From a phage, in the sequence record PZ296772.1: a stretch of DNA of 64,000 bases. The stretch is one strand, 5' to 3'. Numbering within the stretch: the first letter of the stretch is position 1; every line of letters begins with the position of its first letter. Made by a program: the position numbers and the translations under genes. Below, piece by piece: positions 4,195 to 59,880 of this stretch. The notes under the pieces were generated by a model, which saw only the letters and a list, made by a program, of their open reading frames with translations, did not search any database and was not told the DNA's origin.

Positions 4195-5967
4195 TTAATT
4201 AACACCGGTGGCATGGAAAATTCCAGGAGCCGTTGTACTTGTTACAGGGGTCATATTCTGGACTACGGTATTCTTTTTGACGACATTATTTGTGTTACTA
4301 ATCGCCGCTACCGGTTGCTGTTGTTTAGATTCAGAAGCACGTCCTTTCTCTATTGACTGAACTTGTTTTGCTTCAGGAGATTTAGTCGAAGATTCAGGCT
4401 TAACTGTTGTCTGAGCCTTTTTGGCTTCAGCCATTTTATTATTTAGCTTTTCAAATCTAGCATCTAATTCCTTTTTAACAACAGGAGTTTTATTAAGTTC
4501 AGGGTCTTTAATAAGTTTACTTAAATCAGCATAAGACTTCTCGACGTTTTTAGCATTTTCCGGATTAGTCATATCGATTTTATCGATATAATCCTCAAAT
4601 CTAACTAGTGCCGCACGAGTTTCATTAGCTTTTATATATGCCTCTTTACGCTCCTCTTCAGGTAACTCTTTTAATTTTGCCGATTCCGCAGCACGTTCAT
4701 CGCTTGTACTAAACTCTTCTTTATTGTCATTACCACGAACCCAGTTAGTAACAAATGTTTTGCCGCGTTGTAACATATCAAGACCTTTAGAAACGGTTCC
4801 TAATTCCCCGTCGTCACGCTTCATTTGATATTTAGCGACTTTCTCTTGGTCTTCTTTCTTTAATTTGTTCCCGGTAGTTTCTTGGAATCCTTCCAAAGCA
4901 CGTCCTTCTATTTCGTCCGCGGTATCACCAAAACCTATAGCACGCAATATAGACGCAGAGAGTTTAGCCATTCCTAATTGAATTAGTTCACCTAAGTTCA
5001 TTAATGCTGTTCCTACACCTTTGACAATAGCAACGGTTAAACCACCCCAGTCTCCAGCTTCCCACAATTGTTTTATCGAGTCAATAGAAGTGAATATATC
5101 ACTTAAGAATTTACCCCACTCTTTAGCTTCATCAGAGAATTTAGTAAAGTTTTCATCAAATAAATCCCAGGCAGAAGTGAACTTGTCTGTCCAATATTTG
5201 AAATGGACTATCAATAAATCAATACCGATAACAATACCAAGAATAAGTGCGGCCATTTTTGCTGCTTCAATAGCAGCTGTTATAGTGTATTTGAAAAGCA
5301 TTCCAGCAATTCTGTCTGAAATTGATATTGATTTATTAAACCCGGTTTGAACCGTTTTGGTGAGCATTGCAATTTTATCGCTCAATTTAAAGCTAATCCC
5401 GCCTTTAGAATCGGAAGTAGAATTAGCGCTTTCTTGAACTGGCGCTGGGAAGAAATCTTCGTCTGGCTTATTATCAATCTTTTCAGGTGTAGGTAATGCT
5501 TTAAACAGCTCATCAGAAGTTTCATTCTCAACCACTTTAACAGGTATTGCGTTCTCAATTACTTCAAGAGAGGTGCCTCCTGTATTTTGAATAGCGGTAG
5601 ATGTTTGTAATTTTTGCTCTAATAATGTAGCTAATCGGTCTAACTTAGAGCTTATTGCACTAGAAACTTCGTTTATACTTTTAGTGACTTCAGTTTGTTT
5701 TTCAATAACCTCTGCGATAAGCTCTGTGCCTTCAGCAGTATTATCTGTCGAATTCTTTAAGTCTCCAATTGATTCAATAATTCCATTGCCTTTATCTTCT
5801 ACACTTTGTGATGTGAGTTCAGACGCGGCTTGGACATCGTCTAGTTTTGATGAAATGTTATTCAATGCTTCTAATGAATCAGTAGCTGCTGTTGCAGCTA
5901 CTTTTTGTGGTTTATTATCGGCAATGACCTTATTTCTACGCATGGATTTCATTTCTTCAGGTTTCAT
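4195..5967 (-). CDS. 29: baseplate hub subunit and tail length determinator gp29
   Basis: 590 aa, same length as T4 gp29; synteny. Confidence 0.8.
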   Translation of the reverse strand: MKPEEMKSMRRNKVIADNKPQKVAATAATDSLEALNNISSKLDDVQAASELTSQSVEDKGNGIIESIGDLKNSTDNTAEGTELIAEVIEKQTEVTKSINEVSSAISSKLDRLATLLEQKLQTSTAIQNTGGTSLEVIENAIPVKVVENETSDELFKALPTPEKIDNKPDEDFFPAPVQESANSTSDSKGGISFKLSDKIAMLTKTVQTGFNKSISISDRIAGMLFKYTITAAIEAAKMAALILGIVIGIDLLIVHFKYWTDKFTSAWDLFDENFTKFSDEAKEWGKFLSDIFTSIDSIKQLWEAGDWGGLTVAIVKGVGTALMNLGELIQLGMAKLSASILRAIGFGDTADEIEGRALEGFQETTGNKLKKEDQEKVAKYQMKRDDGELGTVSKGLDMLQRGKTFVTNWVRGNDNKEEFSTSDERAAESAKLKELPEEERKEAYIKANETRAALVRFEDYIDKIDMTNPENAKNVEKSYADLSKLIKDPELNKTPVVKKELDARFEKLNNKMAEAKKAQTTVKPESSTKSPEAKQVQSIEKGRASESKQQQPVAAISNTNNVVKKNTVVQNMTPVTSTTAPGIFHATGVN

Positions 5968-6497: not shown

Positions 6498-7617
6498 TTT
6501 TAACCTTAACTGGGTTAACAGGTTCTAACACCATTGAGTTGGTAAACATGTACAGATGAGTTTGTGAGTTATTATTTGATAACTCATGAATAACTTCATC
6601 GACGTAAAATTCGGATTTGAATTGGTTCTTTTGGTCAACAAATATAATTTTAGTAGCAGGCGTTATGTTAAAATTACCTGTAGTAGTGCATTTAGCATAT
6701 CCATCATATTGAGCCATTGTCTGAAGACGACTTGCTTCTTCAAATCCATTACGATAGGTCATTTCAGAATATCCACCTGATCTTGACACAAGAATAGCAT
6801 TATCACCATCGCCTGTAACAATAACCGGAATAGATGTATCTAAAAATGAATGAGCGAATATCGTGGCGTTTTTAATAGGGTCTCTTGTAAATTGGTTAGC
6901 TTTAGTCATCCAGGTGAAATCCCATACTAATGGATACTCAAGCTCTTGAATATACTGACCTACAGTATTTGGCTCGCCTACAATCATCTTAATGCCTTCC
7001 TGACCAATAAGAGTATCATAGTCAATCATGTTTACGCCTAAAATATCTTGCCATACGAATACAAACTTATCACTCGCTGTAGCAAGTCCTAATTCTCTGA
7101 CATATGCCAAATAATCATCAAATGTGCTTGTCCAAGGAATATCAGGAACATAAGCATTAATAGTGTTTATTGGCGGAGTAATTAACGTACGGTCTTTATA
7201 TATGACACCTAACATTTCACGTATAGATTCTCCTGCGTCTGAGAAGAATGGTCGCCCAAATTTAAGGTTCTCTATAGAATGTATTGTTCCAAGCTCAATT
7301 GCAATAATATTGTCACCTTTTGAGTCCACAGACACAGAATAATGCCTACATCCGTAAATTCGAGTTCTAACTTGGAGAGGTGTGTTTGAATTTGAAACAG
7401 AGATTTGGACTATCTGTCTACCATCCATTTTAGTGTGGATGTTTTTAGTGTCATAAAATTGAAGAATCCCTTCATTTCTTCCATATAGCGAATCTCGCAT
7501 GGTTAAAGTTGTTATTGTTGCTGCGAGTTCAACGTATCTATTTTCTTGCCAAGCCGAATAATCTTGATATAATTTAACGCTTAAGTTAGGATATCCTGGA
7601 CGTTGGAATACTGTCAT
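6445..7617 (-). CDS. 27: baseplate hub subunit gp27
   Basis: 390 aa (T4 391); synteny. Confidence 0.8.
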
Positions 7618-10672: not shown

Positions 10673-12187
10673 TTATAAATTAATTGTTTTCATTACATAG
10701 TTAAATTTCTCATCAGCGTAACGTTGGATACGATCAATACCGTGTTTTAACAAGTAATTAAGATGAGTATACTTCTTTTTAGTATTTAATGATTTAGGTT
10801 TTACACCTGCATCGTCGATTAGATCCCAAACTGTAGCAACAGCTTTAGAACCATGCTTACGAAGCACGCGACCTACGGTTTGAAGTACGATAATTTTTGA
10901 TTTAACACCATGGGCGAAAATAACATGATGAAGATTCTTGACTGAAATACCGGTAGAGAATACTCCATATGATGCGACAATAATAATGCCTTTACCATTT
11001 TCTGCCATGACTTTAAGCGCGTTACGTGTTTCAGTATCAACTTCACCTGATACGTAATAAACTTTTTCGTATCCAAGCTCTTTAATAGCTTCAAATATTT
11101 CTTTACCGTGTGTAACGTGTTTAAACATTACAAAGGCGTTCTCGTCTTTCTTAGCCAATTTGACTGAAAGTTGAGCAATCCACTTTGTACGTCGTTTTAG
11201 TCCGGTAATAATTTTAACTTCTTCTTGGTATGTTTTACCTTTTAATTTAACGGTGAATTCGTCCGGATAACGAAGGAAAATACTATTAATCTTAAGCTCA
11301 GTTACCTGTCCGTCTTCCATTAATTTAGACGTGCTAACAGGACGGAAGATTTCGCCGAACATACCTACGTACTGCATTACGTTGGCTTTTCCATCTCTTA
11401 ATGAGCCGGATAAACCGAATTTAAACATGCAATTATTTAATCCTGAGATGATTGAAGAAATACTTTTGCCTGTTGCTAAGTGGCATTCATCGTTCATCAT
11501 CATACCGAACTGAGAGAACCATTCTTTAGGCTGCTTAACTACTGTTTGCCATGTGCCGACAATAATTGGAGCGTCATTTTTAGCTCTGTCCGCTTTATCA
11601 GCACCACCGCCAATTTTCTTAATCATCGAATGACTAAACAAGCGATAATCAACAAAATCATTAGCCATCTGGGTTGTCAATGCTGTTGTAGGGACGATAA
11701 TGAGAATTTTACCTTCATAGTTCTCTAGATAATATCGAGCTAAAAGTGCTTGGATTAGTGATTTACCTGCTGATGTCGGAAGGTTTAAAATTCGACGACG
11801 ATTAACTAGTCCTTCATATACTGCATCTTTTTGATACCAATGTGGTTCGATTTTGGAGTTGCCTGAATAAATTTCTTGTTTAGAAAGCCATGCGTCAAAA
11901 TCTTCCCTGGTAAGGTCTTCGGTCTCAAAGATTTTAGGGTCAATCCATACAGAATAACTCATATTGCTACAGAACTTTTTTATTTGTCCTACAAGTCCAT
12001 ATGGTAACAAACGGTTGTAATCTAAAAGTCGAATTCTACCATCCCATTGCCCATAGCGATATTTTGGGTTAAATTTATACCCGTCTGCTTCAAAGCTAAA
12101 AAAGTCACGAAGTTCGTAAAACGTACTTTCGTCGCATTCAATGCGCACGTGACTAAAATCATAAAAATGTACTTTAATATCAGTCAT
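10673..12187 (-). CDS. uvsW: UvsW helicase (SF2)
   Basis: 504 aa; Walker A LNLPTSAGKS and DECH motif; T4 position and length. Confidence 0.9.
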   Translation of the reverse strand: MTDIKVHFYDFSHVRIECDESTFYELRDFFSFEADGYKFNPKYRYGQWDGRIRLLDYNRLLPYGLVGQIKKFCSNMSYSVWIDPKIFETEDLTREDFDAWLSKQEIYSGNSKIEPHWYQKDAVYEGLVNRRRILNLPTSAGKSLIQALLARYYLENYEGKILIIVPTTALTTQMANDFVDYRLFSHSMIKKIGGGADKADRAKNDAPIIVGTWQTVVKQPKEWFSQFGMMMNDECHLATGKSISSIISGLNNCMFKFGLSGSLRDGKANVMQYVGMFGEIFRPVSTSKLMEDGQVTELKINSIFLRYPDEFTVKLKGKTYQEEVKIITGLKRRTKWIAQLSVKLAKKDENAFVMFKHVTHGKEIFEAIKELGYEKVYYVSGEVDTETRNALKVMAENGKGIIIVASYGVFSTGISVKNLHHVIFAHGVKSKIIVLQTVGRVLRKHGSKAVATVWDLIDDAGVKPKSLNTKKKYTHLNYLLKHGIDRIQRYADEKFNYVMKTINL

Positions 12188-53968: not shown

Positions 53969-54003
53969 TTTACAAACTCTTGAGAGCAGAGTATAATGCT
54001 CTC
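53969..54003 (+). promoter_or_regulatory. early promoter overlapping a palindrome
   Basis: TTTACA, 17 nt, TATAAT; 7 bp inverted repeat GAGAGCA / TGCTCTC around the -10. Confidence 0.5.
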
Positions 54004-54038: not shown

Positions 54039-54632
54039 ATGAACACACTGAAGAAACTTGTTGAATTCATCCGCACTAAACTGGGTACTGCTATGGCTAA
54101 AAATCTGACTGTCGAAGAACAGTATAATGCAGCTGCAGATAAGTTGATTACCCAAATCAGAGAACTAAAAACGGCTTCTGTTAAATCTATTAATGAAGAA
54201 AAACGTATTCGCGAACTTGTTATTGAAAAGAATAAGCAAGCCGCTTCTAAGGAACGTGAAATTCGTAAGCTCCTGGCTGAAGGACAAGATGTTACCATGC
54301 ATGCTAAGCTTGGTCTTCTGTATCGTCGAACTGCCGAACAACTTAATACAAAAGCTGACGGGTATGCCGCTATGCGAATTGAAATTGCTCGTAAGGTGGT
54401 TGAACTTGACGATGCTCGTCAGAATCTGGCAATCAAACTCGAATACATTCGTGAAACTCGAGCAGCCAATGCCCTTGGTATCTCTACGGCTGATGATGTA
54501 ATTGAAATCGCTGCACTGACTAAGGTTGATATCGAAGACACTCTGACTCGTGTTGAAACGTTCAATGGCACTCCAGCTGGTGTCGAAACCACTTCTGCCG
54601 ATGTACAAGAATATATTAACTCTTTGAAATAA
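54039..54632 (+). CDS. coiled-coil protein, possibly PspA/IM30-like
   Basis: ORF 54024..54632 trimmed to ATG; long predicted coiled-coil with a remembered resemblance to PspA-family helical regions; terminator downstream. Confidence 0.4.
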
Positions 54633-54640
54633 AATAATAC

Positions 54641-54662
54641 GGAGGACTCAGGTCCTCCTTTT
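54641..54662 (+). terminator. intrinsic terminator
   Basis: GGAGGAC-TCAG-GTCCTCC then TTTT. Confidence 0.6.
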
Positions 54663-54681: not shown

Positions 54682-55278
54682 ATGCGAAACCAAAATAATG
54701 ATATTGACTCAATGTTCGAAGAGTTCCGAAATAAGGTAAATCCACCTACGTCTTTAGTTGATTCATTACGATATGTTGCAACTGGACGTAAATGGTACTG
54801 GTCGTCTTCTTATGAGACAACTGAATATGCAAATAACCGAAAATCTTTATTAGCCCCAGGTATTATGATTCATGATATCGGAGCTATTGCTAAACTAGTT
54901 GCAGACCATGATATTAGATTCACTGATTTCATTGCTCCTACATGGTCTGTTTGTTGTTTAAACACTGAACGGGACTATATCAGCGAACGCTCTGAAGATT
55001 ATTATGGTTTTAGAGATAAGCTCTTAAGGTCTAACATGTTTTATATCGATACTGAAGTTCTAGTCGATAATAAAAAATATTACTTTACGTTAATCGTCGA
55101 TTCTGAAACTATGTATGAAGGCAAGCCTTTGCTTAAAAGAGTTGATGCTTTAAGTGCTATTGATGCGCTTTATGAAACCATGGTTGTTAGTCCTAATTTC
55201 ACTAACAATTTAATCCTTGAGCAATTTATTATGGAATGTAGAGAATATGTCAAAGCCAACCCTATACATGCCAAGTAA
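54682..55278 (+). CDS. hypothetical protein with C-terminal EQFIMECR tail motif
   Basis: ORF 54661..55278 trimmed to ATG after AAAGGAG; no obvious TM segment. Confidence 0.55.
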   Translation: MRNQNNDIDSMFEEFRNKVNPPTSLVDSLRYVATGRKWYWSSSYETTEYANNRKSLLAPGIMIHDIGAIAKLVADHDIRFTDFIAPTWSVCCLNTERDYISERSEDYYGFRDKLLRSNMFYIDTEVLVDNKKYYFTLIVDSETMYEGKPLLKRVDALSAIDALYETMVVSPNFTNNLILEQFIMECREYVKANPIHAK

Positions 55279-55642
55279 GCCCTGGGCGTATGAATACAAG
55301 CGTAAATTAATCCCAAATGAAGTACTATTTGGCCCTATTTTAGCTTTAGCATTTTTAATCTTTATGATTATAGGAGCTGTTTTAGATTCTAGTGAAGTTA
55401 TATCGTCTGATGCAGCATTTTCATTAATGTTCGTCGCACCACTTATTGTACCATTTTTATTAATGCCTATTAACTGGGTAGGATATTGGCACCAAGGCCG
55501 TCATCACAGAGCTCGAGTTCGTGAGTGGAAAGTTCAGTGCGCAAAAGCCCAAGCTCAGTATGATGAAGCTGTTAAAAAGTATGAATATGAAGAAGCTATG
55601 GAATTCGTTAAGGAAATAAGATGCAAAAGCCTCAACTCTTAA
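55247..55642 (+). CDS. small membrane protein with EFVKEIRC tail motif
   Basis: ORF 55217..55642 trimmed to first ATG (55268 also possible); two hydrophobic helices. Confidence 0.5.
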   Translation: MSKPTLYMPSKPWAYEYKRKLIPNEVLFGPILALAFLIFMIIGAVLDSSEVISSDAAFSLMFVAPLIVPFLLMPINWVGYWHQGRHHRARVREWKVQCAKAQAQYDEAVKKYEYEEAMEFVKEIRCKSLNS

Positions 55643-55980
55643 CCGTATGGCCTTCTCTTGGTGAGAATATTTTAATTTTTATCACGAGCGCCGGCATGGG
55701 ATTTGCCTTTGGATTAGTTGGATTTCTTATTGACGGCGTTGTGTTAGGATTTATAGGGAACACTGGTGGGTTCACAGACCAATGGCAGGACTTACGGTAT
55801 ACCCAAGCCTTTGCATCCATCGCATCCTTTTGTACTGTAGTCTATTTTTACTACGATTTTATAAACCATAACAAGAAAAATAAAAAGGTTTACGCTTCTC
55901 AAATGATTAGTTATAATGAACTCCTAGCTAGACGTGAAAATGAAACAATCGAAAACTTTATTAAGGAATGTAGAAAATGA
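55621..55980 (+). CDS. small membrane protein with ENFIKECR tail motif
   Basis: 119 aa; AAGGAAA SD inside upstream gene; multiple hydrophobic segments. Confidence 0.55.
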   Translation: MQKPQLLTVWPSLGENILIFITSAGMGFAFGLVGFLIDGVVLGFIGNTGGFTDQWQDLRYTQAFASIASFCTVVYFYYDFINHNKKNKKVYASQMISYNELLARRENETIENFIKECRK

Positions 55981-56282
55981 GTAAGATTATTGAAATTAAA
56001 GTACCAGAGTTTAATGATGCCAAATCCGCTTCAGATGCAATTTATAAACTTCTGAATCAAGCTGAACGTATCGAAGAAGAAGCAACAAAGATCGCAGACC
56101 AATATTCTGTATCATTTTCTGTAGGTGATTATGGTAGCGGTCGTACTTATTATCCTAAGGGTGAAATCGTATCCCAGTGGATGAAAAATGAAATTGAAAA
56201 TAATGGCGGCGATGTTAAGCGTGAAGGTAATGGTTACGTTATTACTGAAGGTGCTTGGGTTTCGTCTTCTGCGTTGTGCTAA
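55977..56282 (+). CDS. hypothetical protein, tandem paralog 1 (C-terminal GAWVSSSALC)
   Basis: 101 aa; ATG overlaps upstream stop. Confidence 0.55.
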   Translation: MSKIIEIKVPEFNDAKSASDAIYKLLNQAERIEEEATKIADQYSVSFSVGDYGSGRTYYPKGEIVSQWMKNEIENNGGDVKREGNGYVITEGAWVSSSALC

Positions 56283-56291
56283 GGAATCATT

Positions 56292-56564
56292 ATGTCTAAA
56301 GAACAAACCGAACTGGCTGAAGCCGTAGCAAAAATATATGCAGCTATTGAGGCTGCCAAAGAAATTGCTGATAAACAAAACACAACATTCGACTTGTATC
56401 CAGCTTATGGTATGGGTGGAACCTATCATTCACCAGGACATCTTAAAGCCGATCTTGAACGTTGTACAAAAAACGGTTATGCTGAATGGGCTGATGTTTA
56501 TCAATACGACTACAACCTGAGCCTTGAAGATGGTGGTTGGGTTGCATCTTCACACACTTGCTAA
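56292..56564 (+). CDS. hypothetical protein, tandem paralog 2 (C-terminal GGWVASSHTC)
   Basis: 90 aa; junction TGCTAAGGAA..ATG conserved. Confidence 0.55.
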   Translation: MSKEQTELAEAVAKIYAAIEAAKEIADKQNTTFDLYPAYGMGGTYHSPGHLKADLERCTKNGYAEWADVYQYDYNLSLEDGGWVASSHTC

Positions 56565-56573
56565 GGAAACCAT

Positions 56574-56771
56574 ATGTCTCGTGAATTAGATTGTGCTGTA
56601 CGTACCGCGGTAGCTGCTCTAGAAAACCTGTTCCAAATTGCAACAGAAGAACGCGAAGAAGTTACATTATGGATTGAAGATAACGCAGGTCTGAATCTCC
56701 AGGACGCGATCTCATTATCTAATAATAGCATTACTGTTCAAGGCTGGGTATCGTCTAGTTATTCTTGCTAA
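56574..56771 (+). CDS. hypothetical protein, tandem paralog 3 (C-terminal QGWVSSSYSC)
   Basis: 65 aa; junction conserved. Confidence 0.5.
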   Translation: MSRELDCAVRTAVAALENLFQIATEEREEVTLWIEDNAGLNLQDAISLSNNSITVQGWVSSSYSC

Positions 56772-56775
56772 AACA

Positions 56776-56814
56776 GTTTACAATAAGATAGGACTATGTT
56801 ATAGTAGTCCTATC
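56776..56814 (+). promoter_or_regulatory. early promoter with palindromic stem-loop cassette
   Basis: GTTTAC, 18 nt, TATAGT; inverted repeat GATAGGACTA / TAGTCCTATC identical to 49843-49870. Confidence 0.65.
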
Positions 56815-56833
56815 AAATTAAATGGAGTCCGCA

Positions 56834-57073
56834 ATGATTTATTACGAAAGTATCGGAACCAAAGTGGTTGGTAAAACCATTACTCGTGAAAAGTTTGCAA
56901 AGATATTCGATATGCGTTATAAAAAATCTGAACACAAAGGCATCCGATTCGAAGATGCGCACTGTGCAATTTGCCCTTATAATGAAGACGTAAATGGTAC
57001 AATCGTTCCATTGGTAGAGGCTTCACATGATGACCTCTGGGATGAATATAATATCGCATGTCGTGAAATTTAA
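56834..57073 (+). CDS. hypothetical protein
   Basis: ORF 56822..57073 trimmed to ATG after GGAG; early promoter upstream; CAIC Cys pair. Confidence 0.5.
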   Translation: MIYYESIGTKVVGKTITREKFAKIFDMRYKKSEHKGIRFEDAHCAICPYNEDVNGTIVPLVEASHDDLWDEYNIACREI

Positions 57074-57101
57074 GTTAATGAATTAATCCGAGGAAAATAT
57101 T

Positions 57102-58058
57102 ATGATGTTAGTTATTGGTTCTCGTGCACTTCACTATCATGGTCTTATTGATTCTAGCGCTATCAAAAATAGTGATTGGGACTTTATTGCAGACCAAGGT
57201 TCTTGGAATGCATTCAAAAATCAAATGATGGGTGTATATGTTCATCAAGATAACCCTGATGTCCAAGTTTTCAAATGCTTCCATAATGGACGCGAAACTC
57301 ATTTTGAAGCATATATTGTTCCGGCAATCACTAATGTCCGTGAATTAGTCGGTGAACTCACTCCTGAAGATTTCACGTCTTCTTATGACCTTTTAAAATA
57401 CGCCAAGAAAAATTTGACTAAAGACCGTTTGACCGGGTTTTACTGGGCAACTCCTGAGATATGTCTTGCAATTAAAATGTCTCATCGTTTCAAGAAAAAT
57501 AATCCATTCTTTTTAAAGACTATGAACCATATTCAGTATCTTCGCGGTAAAGGTGTTACACTGAACGATGAACTTACTGAAATTATGCTGAAACGCCAGA
57601 AAGAAACTTTGAACTATGCTCACCCGGTTCTTGACACTTCTAAAAGTGCGTTCTTTAAAGATGACATCTATACATATGACCATGATACTATTCATGAAGC
57701 CATTGCACTAACTGACCAGCCTGCTTATAAGTTTTATATGAAAGAAGGCTCAGAAGTTATGACATCACGCGAGAAGTTCGAATCATTACCAGAAATGGTT
57801 AAATTAGCCGGTGTATATGAAGAAGCTTGTGTATTAGCTCTTGAACGTTCACAGATTCCTAACGACTTTAAAATCCATCCGAGTGATAGTTTTATGATGG
57901 CCCTTGAAAAGGTCTGTACATCAATCACATCAGGATGGTTCCGTGAGTTCGCTTGGGAAAATTATAGCAAAGTAGTAAGTATGTACCAAAGCTTAGGACA
58001 TGACGATTACGTCAAGCGTTTCAAACAAAACTTTCATATGGTAAAACCTTTCAAATAA
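57102..58058 (+). CDS. hypothetical protein, possible nucleotidyltransferase-like N-terminus
   Basis: 318 aa; GAGG SD; N-terminal GS..(x17)..DWD pattern loosely like the pol-beta NTase signature. Confidence 0.5.
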   Translation: MMLVIGSRALHYHGLIDSSAIKNSDWDFIADQGSWNAFKNQMMGVYVHQDNPDVQVFKCFHNGRETHFEAYIVPAITNVRELVGELTPEDFTSSYDLLKYAKKNLTKDRLTGFYWATPEICLAIKMSHRFKKNNPFFLKTMNHIQYLRGKGVTLNDELTEIMLKRQKETLNYAHPVLDTSKSAFFKDDIYTYDHDTIHEAIALTDQPAYKFYMKEGSEVMTSREKFESLPEMVKLAGVYEEACVLALERSQIPNDFKIHPSDSFMMALEKVCTSITSGWFREFAWENYSKVVSMYQSLGHDDYVKRFKQNFHMVKPFK

Positions 58059-58070
58059 TTTCACAAAACA

Positions 58071-58100
58071 GTTTACAAGGTCTGTAGTTGTTGATACTAT
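58071..58100 (+). promoter_or_regulatory. early promoter (sigma70-type)
   Basis: GTTTAC, 18 nt, TACTAT; leader 58103-58135 near-identical to 50192-50226. Confidence 0.65.
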
Positions 58101-58138
58101 AGACCTATCAAAACAAATGAGTGAATGGAGATATAAAA

Positions 58139-58339
58139 ATGACTACTTTGAATAAACGTTTCGGTAAAGCTAAACCTGGTTGTGCAGCAGAACGTCGTTA
58201 TGTTTTCGCTCAGTTAGAAGATGTAGAGTATCAGATTAATCAAGTTCACATTACTGGTATCGAGCCTATGTGTGGCCTTGAAGCTCTTCGTGAAGTTCGT
58301 GATGGGTATCGTCGTGACATCGAAGAAATGTCAAAATAA
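58139..58339 (+). CDS. hypothetical small protein
   Basis: ORF 58121..58339 trimmed to ATG (MTTLNKRF); leader shared with the 50227 gene. Confidence 0.5.
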   Translation: MTTLNKRFGKAKPGCAAERRYVFAQLEDVEYQINQVHITGIEPMCGLEALREVRDGYRRDIEEMSK

Positions 58340-58340
58340 G

Positions 58341-58378
58341 TGTACAAACTGATAGGGCTATGTTATAGTAGTCCTATC
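58341..58378 (+). promoter_or_regulatory. early promoter with palindromic stem-loop cassette
   Basis: TGTACA, 17 nt, TATAGT; inverted repeat GATAGGGCTA / TAGTCCTATC. Confidence 0.6.
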
Positions 58379-58395
58379 AACTTGAGGAGAATATT

Positions 58396-58701
58396 ATGAA
58401 ATTAACAGAAACCAACCGAATCGGTCTTTTTACAATATTTGCATCGCTTTTTTACGCAGCTCTTTCTGTTGCAGTATTACAAAAGGCTTACGATATGGAT
58501 GGTGTTCCTGGTTGTATATTTTTATCACCGTTTTTATTATTCGTCGGAGCTTTGATATTATATGCCACGTCCGGTTTAGACCATAATGTCTGGGTCAATT
58601 ATAAACGTAAATTGTCCGAAGAAGAACACGCAGAAGCTCGTAAAAAAGCTATTGAATCTACCAATCTAGAAAATTTCATTAAAGAATGTCGAGGAAAATA
58701 A
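58396..58701 (+). CDS. small membrane protein with ENFIKECR tail motif
   Basis: 101 aa; GAGGAG SD; two hydrophobic helices. Confidence 0.55.
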   Translation: MKLTETNRIGLFTIFASLFYAALSVAVLQKAYDMDGVPGCIFLSPFLLFVGALILYATSGLDHNVWVNYKRKLSEEEHAEARKKAIESTNLENFIKECRGK

Positions 58702-58702
58702 T

Positions 58703-59389
58703 ATGAATAGTTCTAAAGTGTTTAATAGTCAAGCTCGTGCAGTAGGTGGTTTTGCCGGCGGTATTTCTAATGATAAAATCAAGAACGAGCCTATGTTCTT
58801 CAACTGTAGTTTAGAATTTGCTTATAATAACGGCGGTCCTATTACTCGCTCTTTCATTATGAACTTGCCGGATGATTGGAACACCGACCAGGTTGTATTT
58901 GATTCACGAGTCCACATGCTGATGCCTGGTTGGTATCCTGCAATCCCAGGCTATCACCATGATGACGTACCACGCCCAGATATTCCAGTTGGTCAACACT
59001 TTATTACTGCAGGACAACCTGACTATGACAACCCTCGTTACCATTCTGAACATATTCTTGGTCTTGTTAACGCTGATGTGTGTCCTACTCATTTTGCAAC
59101 AGGAACTGCGGAGTTCAGTCAGATTCCTGATGGCGAACTTATCTATCGCCAGTGGCACAAAGAAGTCCTCGAAAAAATTGAAAAAGGTGAACTAGAGAAA
59201 TGGGAAGCTCCGGACCGTACTCTTCTTCAGTTTGATTGGCAAACATGGCACACTGGTTCTCGTGCAATTAGTAATGGATGGCGTTGGTTCGGACGTGTAT
59301 CTCGTAATACAGACAGAGTTAAAAAGATTACCAATGAAATTCGTGTCAATGCCCAAGTTTATCTGGAATTCCCTATGGAAGGCTGGTAA
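58703..59389 (+). CDS. hypothetical protein
   Basis: 228 aa; His-rich segments (GYHHDD, YHSEH) of unknown significance. Confidence 0.55.
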   Translation: MNSSKVFNSQARAVGGFAGGISNDKIKNEPMFFNCSLEFAYNNGGPITRSFIMNLPDDWNTDQVVFDSRVHMLMPGWYPAIPGYHHDDVPRPDIPVGQHFITAGQPDYDNPRYHSEHILGLVNADVCPTHFATGTAEFSQIPDGELIYRQWHKEVLEKIEKGELEKWEAPDRTLLQFDWQTWHTGSRAISNGWRWFGRVSRNTDRVKKITNEIRVNAQVYLEFPMEGW

Positions 59390-59880
59390 TGATACATAAA
59401 ATTCACTGGGCAAACATGGACGATGGCGATGAAGGTATTTCATATTATTCTATAGATTGGACAGGATGTCCATCCTACTTAGTGAAACATATTTGTCAAG
59501 AATTTAAAATCGACCAGCCAGCAGGTATTATCGTGAACAGATACATTAATGGATATCAACCTATCGATGAAGTAATACGAACAACTCAAGCTGAGCTTGA
59601 AAAGTTTTTCAATAAGTGCCAATGGATAACAGGATGGATTATATTTGTACCGTCTATATGGTTTTTCAGTACTAAGGTGAGTTCTTTCGGTTTTGTTGAT
59701 ACTATTGCTATCTTATTAGCATCTAGTATCATAAGTGTTGTTGGTGGCATCATTGGCGGCGGTACCGCCGCCATCATTATTAATCTTGTTAAAAGTAGTT
59801 TACAAGAACATAAAGACAAGATAAAAGCCAAGAATAATGAAGTTGAACGTTTTATTACCGAATGCAGGAATTTGAGATGA
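59389..59880 (+). CDS. membrane protein with ERFITECR tail motif
   Basis: 163 aa; soluble N-domain then hydrophobic Gly-rich segments. Confidence 0.55.
   Translation: MIHKIHWANMDDGDEGISYYSIDWTGCPSYLVKHICQEFKIDQPAGIIVNRYINGYQPIDEVIRTTQAELEKFFNKCQWITGWIIFVPSIWFFSTKVSSFGFVDTIAILLASSIISVVGGIIGGGTAAIIINLVKSSLQEHKDKIKAKNNEVERFITECRNLR

Follow-up and report, generated by a model that had tools for sequence, protein, structure and literature searches.

Tail-bearing genes in the e.5 to e.2 region of a Mosigvirus-type phage

A group of small phage proteins that share a short C-terminal peptide, hereafter called the tail, was analyzed in a 64,000-nucleotide (nt) stretch of phage DNA (record PZ296772.1; hereafter the window). 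The tail was found on five proteins, p1 to p5, encoded between positions 54,682 and 59,880. A preliminary description, made by a model from the sequence, had drawn attention to these five open reading frames (ORFs), and the ends it gave for them were all borne out by the ORF coordinates (Table 1).

The window is of the Mosigvirus type, that is, from an RB69/JS09-like T4-type phage. Over a 5.4-kb region, identity was 98% with Shigella phage SSE1 and 95% with JS09 and further Mosigvirus genomes. NudE, T4-type lysozyme e, and DenV are encoded downstream of the tail genes, and the block is the counterpart of the 'e.2–e.8' block of T4. When translated T4 genes were matched to the window, p1, p2, p3, and p5 corresponded to e.5, e.4, e.3, and e.2, and the ORF at 54039–54632 corresponded to e.6; p4 had no T4 counterpart. 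The window genes are orthologs or paralogs of T4 e.5/e.4/e.3/e.2, with the order kept, upstream of nudE and e. Each of the five proteins falls into a separate PHROG of unassigned function.

Protein p1 matched phrog_2607 over residues 1–198 (E = 1.9e-94), was 47–49% identical to T4-type e.5 proteins, and lies directly after the e.6 ortholog, as expected for the e.5 family. T4 e.5 itself ends in ..LEKFVKECREYVKAITIPSK. The match of p2 to phrog_2604 (E = 1.1e-64) was accompanied by two transmembrane (TM) segments (residues 26–44 and 57–75) and a 32-nt overlap as in T4. The start of p2 was set at ATG 55247 and not at the upstream TTG 55217, because the PHROG match starts at residue 11 of the TTG ORF and T4 e.4 starts with MSKPSLY. 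Protein p3 matched phrog_2330 (E = 1.1e-48) and was 35–39% identical to Tequatrovirus e.3 over 100% of its length in a tblastn search. Protein p4 is akin to the C-terminal half of e.2-type proteins, with a weak phrog_2203 match at residues 14–99. Protein p5 matched phrog_2203 (E = 5.8e-53), T4 e.2 aligned to its N-terminus, and it has the marks of the e.2 family, namely an N-terminal W-x-N-L/M-D-D-G-D-E-G followed by TM segments and a location upstream of nudE. The RB69 record calls its counterpart 'e.2 conserved hypothetical, predicted membrane protein'.

A Kyte-Doolittle scan detected two hydrophobic segments in each of p2 to p5 and none in p1, as had been stated for four of the five proteins. 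All of p2 to p5 have the same layout of two hydrophobic segments, a basic and charged stretch, and the tail.

Table 1. Coordinates of the tail-bearing genes and their tail motifs in the window (TM, transmembrane; aa, amino acids).
Feature	Position	Strand	Description
p1	54682..55278	+	Soluble, 198 aa, ortholog of T4 e.5 (phrog_2607); ends ..LEQFIMECREYVKANPIHAK
Tail motif of p1	55216..55242	+	L-E-Q-F-I-M-E-C-R
p2	55247..55642	+	131-aa protein with two TM segments, ortholog of T4 e.4 (phrog_2604); ends ..MEFVKEIRCKSLNS
Variant tail of p2	55595..55621	+	A-M-E-F-V-K-E-I-R, Ile in the Cys place
p3	55621..55980	+	119-aa protein with two TM segments, ortholog of T4 e.3 (phrog_2330); ends ..IENFIKECRK
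Tail motif of p3	55948..55974	+	I-E-N-F-I-K-E-C-R
p4	58396..58701	+	101-aa protein with two TM segments (phrog_9798); ends ..LENFIKECRGK
Tail motif of p4	58666..58692	+	L-E-N-F-I-K-E-C-R
p5	59389..59880	+	163 aa, soluble N-terminal domain and two TM segments, RB69/T4 e.2 ortholog (phrog_2203); ends ..VERFITECRNLR
Tail motif of p5	59842..59868	+	V-E-R-F-I-T-E-C-R

Occurrence of the tail in the window

The strict pattern E.F[IV].E[CI]R was counted in a six-frame translation of the 64-kb window (approximately 128,000 positions). Four matches were obtained, compared to 0.0066 expected from residue frequencies and none in 300 residue shuffles. All four lay at the 3' ends of tail genes, and no further copy was present elsewhere in the window.

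The claim of a C-terminal tail common to all five proteins needed correction at two points. Protein p1 continues past the motif for another 11 residues, whose codons belong to the 32-nt overlap between p1 and the beginning of p2. In p2, only the variant F-V-K-E-I-R is present, with Ile at the Cys position. The Cys that comes after it (AGA TGC) is there because the ATG of p3 (55621–55623) spans both codons. The e.4/e.3 junction of T4 has the same arrangement.

The tail in other phages

Syntenic blocks were fetched from other genera and scanned in all frames. The tail is wider than first noticed and includes T4. We collected 44 tails from 11 phage genomes of 11 different lineages, on at least six unrelated families of soluble proteins and proteins with two TM segments (2-TM proteins). 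Three to six tails were found in each Tevenvirinae-type genome examined, and likewise in Klebsiella phages R3_1 (Marfavirus) and Roth17, whose records are not placed in Tevenvirinae (that of Roth17 is without taxonomy). T4 (Tequatrovirus) has the tail on e.5, a variant on e.4, and the tail on e.3 and an e.2 remnant; VR7 (Gaprivervirus) has the e.4 variant, e.3, and e.2; and IME281 (Dhakavirus) has an e.5-slot protein, e.3, and e.2. Five tail-bearing proteins each are encoded by Q7622 (Kanagawavirus), Merlin (Moonvirus), R3_1, and Roth17, and six by fGh-Ecl01 (Karamvirus). Tails were also seen beyond Tevenvirinae. In Cronobacter phage leB (Pseudotevenvirus), the protein after e.6 contains M-E-K-F-I-H-S-C-K-K, then 25 residues to the stop, and two paralogs after e.6 in Aeromonas phage AS-zj contain F-I-N-Y-C-I and F-V-E-Y-C-I. 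The carriers are soluble e.5-slot proteins (180–316 aa), a soluble protein of about 92–117 aa, and 2-TM proteins of the e.4, e.3, e.2, and p4 families.

The consensus of the 44 tails was [ED]-[LIF]-[EN]-x-[FW]-[IV]-K/x-E/x-C-[RK], and the minimal pattern was hydrophobic-x-x-[FW]-[IV]-x-x-C-[RK] with 0–25 residues to the stop codon. With the aromatic residue taken as position 0, the counts were F 40 and W 4 at position 0; I 33, V 10, and L 1 at +1; C 35 and I/M/V/S 9 at +4; and R 37, K 5, and I 2 at +5. The Cys place was occupied by I, S, V, or M in the e.4 orthologs of six genera, that is, in the whole e.4 family, and two further 2-TM families made the same swap. Glu at +3 was present in 19 of the 44 tails, with G, Y, S, Q, N, or D there in several genera.

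A relaxed pattern was scanned in nine source sequences (the window and eight loci). It gave 29 matches within the last 20 residues of ORFs (24,920 positions) and 6 internal matches (99,868 positions), which is an approximately 19-fold enrichment per position at ORF ends; 3 of these 29 matches come from the Y-x-S-L-C-R-K-H-W motif of thymidine kinase. A hidden Markov model (HMM) of the tail, run over the complete T4 genome, matched e.5, e.3, and the e.2 remnant only. The tail is thus confined to the e cluster in T4, and it is not the common low-information sequence that had been named as a possible refutation.

Two candidates were not accepted as members. The window ORF at 56822–57073 (..NIACREI) was considered as a sixth tail protein; it is the ortholog of Q7622 7271–7501 (..CYEI), and Q7622 has a true tail protein of about 92 aa besides. 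A 'hybrid' protein from OLB35 (P0006), with an e.3 N-terminus and an e.4 tail, was set aside because its record is marked UNVERIFIED.

T4 e.2, although annotated as 102 aa, corresponds over T4 67475–67960 (minus strand of the fetched locus) to a full-length ortholog of the 163-aa p5 with two in-frame stops (..IQWTE*AIGFF*LYLL..). The unannotated 53 codons downstream are in frame, end in ..NLNNFITECRKLK, and overlap the start of nudE. From this arrangement, T4 e.2 looks like a recently inactivated gene.

Selection on the protein and relationships among the carriers

To compare codon use, 23 tails from 7 genera were tabulated. Phe was encoded by TTT in 13 tails and TTC in 8 (TGG for Trp in the remaining 2); Cys by TGT in 17 and TGC in 6; and Arg by AGA in 8, CGT in 5, AGG in 3, CGA in 2, and CGC in 2, with AAA (Lys) in 3. 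Codons also differed among the window genes, as the preliminary description had stated. The octapeptide ENFIKECR is common to p3 and p4, and 4 of its 8 codons differ synonymously; a recent gene conversion is thereby excluded. Six ortholog families were compared, and in every one the mean pairwise identity of the nine tail columns was 0.43–0.52, compared to 0.19–0.28 elsewhere, and the reading frame of the tail was kept in all 11 genomes.

These data show the tail to be a short peptide module on which selection acts at the protein level. The preliminary description had argued this from codon differences, and the codon table and the roughly 2-fold identity of the tail columns support it. It had also allowed that related phages might conserve only the nucleotide junction; when the junctions were compared, both frame and residues were kept.

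In hhalign comparisons, membrane families matched each other at 92–97% probability when the tails were included, with alignments that extended over the tail alone or over the tail and the preceding helix. After removal of the tails, the probability was 78% for e2–p4 (97% with tails), 41% for e3–e4, and at most 4% for other pairs. Matches between the soluble families and the rest spanned 12–26 tail columns only. By these profile comparisons, the tail is common to at least six families, of which at most two pairs are detectable paralogs. It may have spread by recombination of 3' ends or originated repeatedly.

The block was rearranged in several phages. The e.5-slot proteins are split between PHROGs 2607 and 8788 with the tail retained; that of IME281 belongs to 8788, yet it ends in L-N-R-F-I-A-E-C-R-E-Y-A-K. 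IME281 is without e.4, and the last residues of its e.5-slot protein, ..NGAA, resemble the ..NGTA of VR7 e.4; these codons overlap the e.3 start. In phage phiC120 (Mosigvirus; 5001–5090 of the fetched locus), the p3/e.3-like body is lost and the last 30 codons, with an intact tail, remain before the next gene. This remnant suggests that deletions in the block tend to spare the junction.

Overlapping genes, ribosome-binding sites, and expression

Many stop codons in the block overlap the next start (ATGA). Since the genes are packed end to end, tail codons also carry the ribosome-binding site or the start of the next gene. Duplex energies with the anti-Shine-Dalgarno sequence were calculated for five downstream starts, and the 5th percentile of the window background was −5.9 kcal/mol. 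The start of p3 and that of the following gene both scored −6.1 kcal/mol with AAGGAA, which is the K-E codons of the p2 and p3 tails, respectively; the ATG of the following gene overlaps the p3 stop (ATGA at 55977). For the 228-aa gene after p4 (start 58703), the site was GAGGA from the R-G codons (CGA GGA; −5.9 kcal/mol), and for the 78-aa gene after p5 it was AGGA from the R-N codons (AGG AAT; −4.3 kcal/mol). The ATG of the latter overlaps the p5 stop at 59877, in agreement with the SSE1 annotation. The site of p2 was weak (−3.3 kcal/mol). The proposal that AAG GAA of the motif acts as the Shine-Dalgarno sequence was thus correct in essence but applies more loosely than first put: AAGGAA serves the genes after p2 and p3, other codons serve after p4 and p5, and the p1–p2 site is weak. 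The location of the site in or just after the motif, at varying places, explains the preference for K-E, K-G, and R-G at variable positions. It does not account for the conserved F, I/V, C, and R.

Two overlaps are out of frame: p1/p2 by 32 nt (55247–55278; likewise 32 nt in T4, 68662–68693) and p2/p3 by 22 nt (55621–55642). Conservation of the C-terminal extensions EYVKAxxIxxK (e.5) and CKSxxS (e.4) is due to the second frame, which encodes the N-termini MSKPxLY and MQKPxL of the next genes.

A terminator-like hairpin is located at 54641–54658, between e.6 and p1, and sigma-70-like promoters at 53969, 56777, 58072, and 58341. Late-promoter boxes (TATAAATA) occurred 18 times in the window and never between 54 and 60 kb. 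From these signals, the tail genes look like early or middle genes.

Database and literature searches

No tail protein had a match in Pfam, NCBIfam, or PDB sequences, and no earlier description of a common tail was found in the family libraries, PDB sequences, or the literature searched by gene name and motif string. Two genome-wide T4 screens contained nothing on the tail genes. With PHROGs included, the searches agreed with the initial remark that no described family matches the tail. In the protein database, the labels PF26873, PF26876, and PF26896 were encountered; these are recent per-family entries, absent from the Pfam version searched, that by construction do not link the families. The T4 e.5/e.4/e.3/e.2 families are the nearest described relatives, as e.5 and e.3 bear the tail, e.4 its variant, and e.2 a tail behind the two stops; however, they are catalogued singly as 'hypothetical' or of 'unknown function', and no entry or paper linking them by the tail was found.

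A homolog search with a 41-column tail alignment returned 13 short fragments, all of the same T-even proteins. The tail-seeded profile search suggested earlier was carried out exhaustively with HMMER, using a 33-position profile against 1.84 billion representatives. It yielded 7 matches, of which six were e-cluster proteins and one (P0044) was a repetitive false positive; at this profile sensitivity, no wider family or host look-alike of the tail was found.

The exact octapeptide ENFIKECR was found in IMG/VR in Mosigvirus contigs and in a few unrelated matches. In 185,579 prokaryotic genomes, it had 18 matches, all inside large proteins and none in Enterobacteriaceae, and it was found at the C-terminus of no bacterial or archaeal protein. 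We estimate that several such matches would arise by chance at that information content, and they were rejected as evidence of host mimicry. One unrelated phage in IMG/VR (three contigs) encodes, just downstream of a major-head-protein gene, a 115-aa protein (11800–12144 of one contig) with an internal A-L-E-N-F-I-K-E-C-R-G. It equals the p4 tail over ten residues, but it lies 40 residues from the end of the protein, and we judged it to be a chance or convergent helix.

Neighboring genes

The e.6 ortholog (197 aa, phrog_1203) was much better conserved than its neighbors, with 87–88% identity to T4 and 50–58% in Aeromonas phages, and it was present in 1102 phage records. It had no Pfam, NCBIfam, or PDB match. 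Several GenBank records tag e.6 as a 'host specificity protein', with no basis given in the records shown.

The 228-aa protein between p4 and p5 (58703–59389, phrog_1843) was 75–82% identical in Aeromonas T4-like phages. Homologs at 26–35% were found in Pectobacterium, Erwinia, Cronobacter, Enterobacter, Mycobacterium, Gordonia, Alteromonas, and Pseudoalteromonas phages, an unusually wide spread for a gene of so variable a block. The 318-aa protein at 57102–58058 matched Pfam DUF7277 in its N-terminal part (E = 9e-28) and DUF7275 in its C-terminal part (E = 1e-78). It is kept in most related loci and was not seen in the annotated Roth17 block.

A second, distinct family with a C-terminal Cys motif lies between the tail-bearing genes. 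Three consecutive small soluble paralogs (55977–56282, 56292–56564, and 56574–56771; 101, 90, and 65 aa; phrog_899 and phrog_4882) end at the extreme C-terminus in G-x-W-V-S-S-S-x-x-C. This WVSSS family is expanded to five copies in VR7 (..WVSSSAMC, ..WVSSSSEC, ..WVSSSYEC, ..WYNSSMSC, and ..WYPSSC) and to four to five copies in Q7622, Merlin, and R3_1.

The tail as a possible docking helix

The reading we tentatively favor, at somewhat short of even confidence, is that the tail is a docking helix for one common partner, a host or phage protein encoded outside the block. On a helix wheel, the hydrophobic residue at −3, F at 0, I/V at +1, and C at +4 fall within a 100-degree arc, with R at +5 at its edge. 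The hydrophobic moment of the tails was 0.47–0.69; their mean hydrophobicity was −0.38 to +0.03, with three acidic positions. In an AlphaFold2 model of p1, residues 177–192 formed a helix with a predicted local distance difference test score (pLDDT) of about 75, compared to the model mean of 58. The tail would thus form a short amphipathic helix with a non-polar face centered on the Cys. In the 2-TM proteins, this helix would close the basic, charged segment after the second TM segment, and that topology predicts a place on the cytoplasmic side of the inner membrane. The docking helix could then bring membrane-anchored and soluble carriers to one partner early in infection. T-even-type genomes each encode three to six such carriers as early proteins of a non-essential region, the 'e.2–e.6' block. 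The retention of exact residues on unrelated carriers of one genome is better explained by a specific binding epitope than by generic amphipathicity. The exchange of Cys for I/V/M/S in e.4 and two other 2-TM families points to a buried non-polar site, not a ligand or nucleophile, and the Cys would act mainly as a small buried non-polar residue, not as a chemical group.

Genes of the block itself were considered as the partner. Highly conserved and always before e.5, e.6 was a candidate hub. In VR7 (161.5 of 169.3 kb scanned), no homolog of e.6 or e.5 was detected (tblastn E above 1), and the tails of e.4, e.3, and e.2 are present; therefore, e.6 and e.5 are not obligate partners, and e.6 was rejected in this role. 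Nothing supported the idea that e.6 is PspA-like. A requirement for the WVSSS-x-x-C family, the DUF7275/7277 protein, or the 228-aa protein as partner is also improbable. Roth17 carries five tails, and its annotated block lacks genes at the places that those three take in other genomes; Roth17 was not directly searched for them.

Several points weigh against the docking helix. No partner of the tail turned up in this analysis. The structure models were weak (pLDDT 58 for p1 and 36 for p5), and the tail helix of p1, although modeled with relative confidence, may simply pack against the domain that carries it. Membrane topology was taken from hydropathy alone. The lone, well-kept Cys (35 of 44) beside Arg could still reflect chemistry and not packing. 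Finally, the two stops in T4 e.2 and the loss of p3 in phiC120 indicate that individual members are dispensable and that the selective value of the tail is conditional.

Alternative explanations

Tails might bind each other instead, forming a hetero-oligomeric membrane complex through a bundle of C-terminal helices in which the 2-TM members tether the soluble ones; we regard this as unlikely. Co-assembly is favored by the fact that several tail proteins are always encoded together and are often translationally coupled. The conserved hydrophobic positions have a heptad-like spacing (a/d/e/a), and the block contains no partner gene with universal linkage to the tails. Hints of co-variation within genomes came from F-V in T4 e.5/e.4/e.3 versus F-I in window p1/p3/p4/p5 and from W at position 0 in the 2-TM members of R3_1 and Roth17, but the sample is small and paralogy (e2–p4) explains part of it. 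Moreover, nine residues make a short helix for a bundle that is to be stable, and the Aeromonas and Pseudotevenvirus loci examined have the motif on e.5-slot proteins only, with no 2-TM tail proteins. Improbable, in our estimate, is a C-terminal amphipathic membrane-binding helix that would keep the soluble members on the inner membrane and place the ends of the 2-TM proteins along the bilayer surface. Such helices of MinD and FtsA are also short and C-terminal, with basic flanks, and act at the cytoplasmic face of the inner membrane, where the tail is predicted to lie. The tail has the C-terminal place, the amphipathic pattern, and the basic flanks (R/K at +5, often K/R at +6 to +8), and it is common to soluble and membrane proteins. 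However, it has just four non-polar residues, acidic residues at −4, −2, and +3, and the low mean hydrophobicity given above. Known membrane-targeting helices conserve amphipathicity and not exact residues; those of MinD and FtsA sit on soluble proteins, whereas the tail keeps F, I/V, C, and R across families with less than 25% identity and is mostly on integral membrane proteins, and proteins with two TM segments need no extra targeting. A role centered on the Cys, as a thiol for inter-chain metal bridging, redox sensing, or covalent modification with Arg tuning its reactivity, appears quite improbable. In favor of this role, Cys was taken as the best-kept residue next to Phe (35 of 44), R/K follows it in those tails, and TGT and TGC are both used, so the residue is selected. 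Nevertheless, each tail has a single Cys and no second ligand at a fixed spacing, different from zinc clasps and zinc hooks with their invariant Cys/His, usually two per chain; the rest of the motif is kept in the families that carry I/V/M/S (9 of the 44 tails); and the Cys that comes after the motif in p2 and in T4 e.4 exists only because the start codon of the following gene overlaps there.

Three further explanations were given very little weight, in decreasing order. A nascent-peptide effect, by which the last residues modulate termination or re-initiation at stop/start junctions, would suit the translational coupling of the genes and the position of most tails, which end 0–5 residues before a stop overlapping or abutting the next start. 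Known arrest and termination-context peptides such as SecM and TnaC act at a fixed distance from the peptidyl-transferase center, but the distance from motif to stop varied from 0 to 25 residues, and e.5-type tails lie 5–25 residues upstream of the stop. The capsid-targeting sequence of T4, an N-terminal M-K-T-Y-x-E-F-I-x-E cleaved after Glu by the gp21 prohead protease, is likewise a peptide of about 10 residues on unrelated proteins of one phage that is read by one receptor. It is hardly credible that the tail is a C-terminal relative of it or a plain gp21 site (I-x-E), even though both contain hydrophobic-x-x-F-I-x-E: four positions agree (hydrophobic or aromatic at −3, F at 0, I/L/V at +1, and E at +3), and the window itself encodes proteins that start with MKTYKEFIS, MKTFNEFISE, and MKSYAEFLTE. 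The tail is at the wrong end, 0–25 residues from the C-terminus in all 44 cases; its 2-TM carriers are unlikely to be packed into the prohead core; the promoters are early, not late; and the tails of Kanagawa-, Moon-, Marfa-, and Karamviruses have G, S, Y, Q, or M in place of E at +3 but keep F, I, and C-R. The capsid-targeting sequence is N-terminal, cleaved, and late, on soluble packaged carriers, whereas the tail is C-terminal and early, mostly on membrane carriers, and has an added C-R. The least probable explanation is an RNA- or DNA-level element, a conserved junction cassette (either a recombination hotspot or a ribosome-binding site with a start) that would read F-I-K-E-C-R in translation by coincidence. 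At three to four of the five junctions, the ribosome-binding site of the next gene does come from tail codons, and rearrangements end in or near tails (the phiC120 p3 remnant and the end of the IME281 e.5-slot protein). This explanation is largely refuted by the free variation of synonymous codons, with Arg in both codon families. In addition, the ribosome-binding site is placed differently relative to the motif, no ribosome-binding site includes the codons for F, I/V, and C, which are not rich in purines, and the frame is kept in 11 of 11 genomes.

The N-termini of four small window proteins (ORF starts 49541, 49894, 52568, and 61081) fit the capsid-targeting sequence; these are probably internal head proteins of the phage.

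Implications for the e.2–e.6 block

The tail resembles arrangements with a shared address or docking peptide and belongs to no described one. The LPXTG/sortase and PEP-CTERM/exosortase signals are also short C-terminal motifs on many unrelated proteins of one genome. However, those precede a TM helix and a basic tail, on proteins with a signal peptide, and the cognate enzyme is encoded; in the tail proteins, the TM segments come before the motif, nothing hydrophobic follows it, there is no signal peptide, and no candidate enzyme is linked. It is possible, though we consider it rather doubtful, that the tail is an address tag, a C-terminal counterpart of the N-terminal capsid-targeting sequence that is read by a single host or phage receptor at the inner membrane, with the e.2–e.5 block encoding interchangeable cargo and anchor proteins that come together on it early in infection. 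If this were true, these genes would form a single functional system instead of a collection of unrelated accessory genes.

Dual coding is clearly illustrated by this locus, where the same stretch provides a peptide motif, the ribosome-binding site of the next gene, and sometimes its N-terminus. Both the 'R-C' of e.4 and the additional 11 residues of e.5 are explained in this way.

Even in T4, which has been studied better than any other large lytic phage, e.2–e.6 are still 'hypothetical'. The selected common tail on three to six proteins per genome, which is conserved in phages of Escherichia, Klebsiella, Enterobacter, Citrobacter, Cronobacter, and Aeromonas, is the first feature to connect the e.2–e.6 proteins. 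With its nine residues and four defined positions, the tail offers a direct experimental handle, and if one partner were recovered, several ORFan families would gain a function at once.

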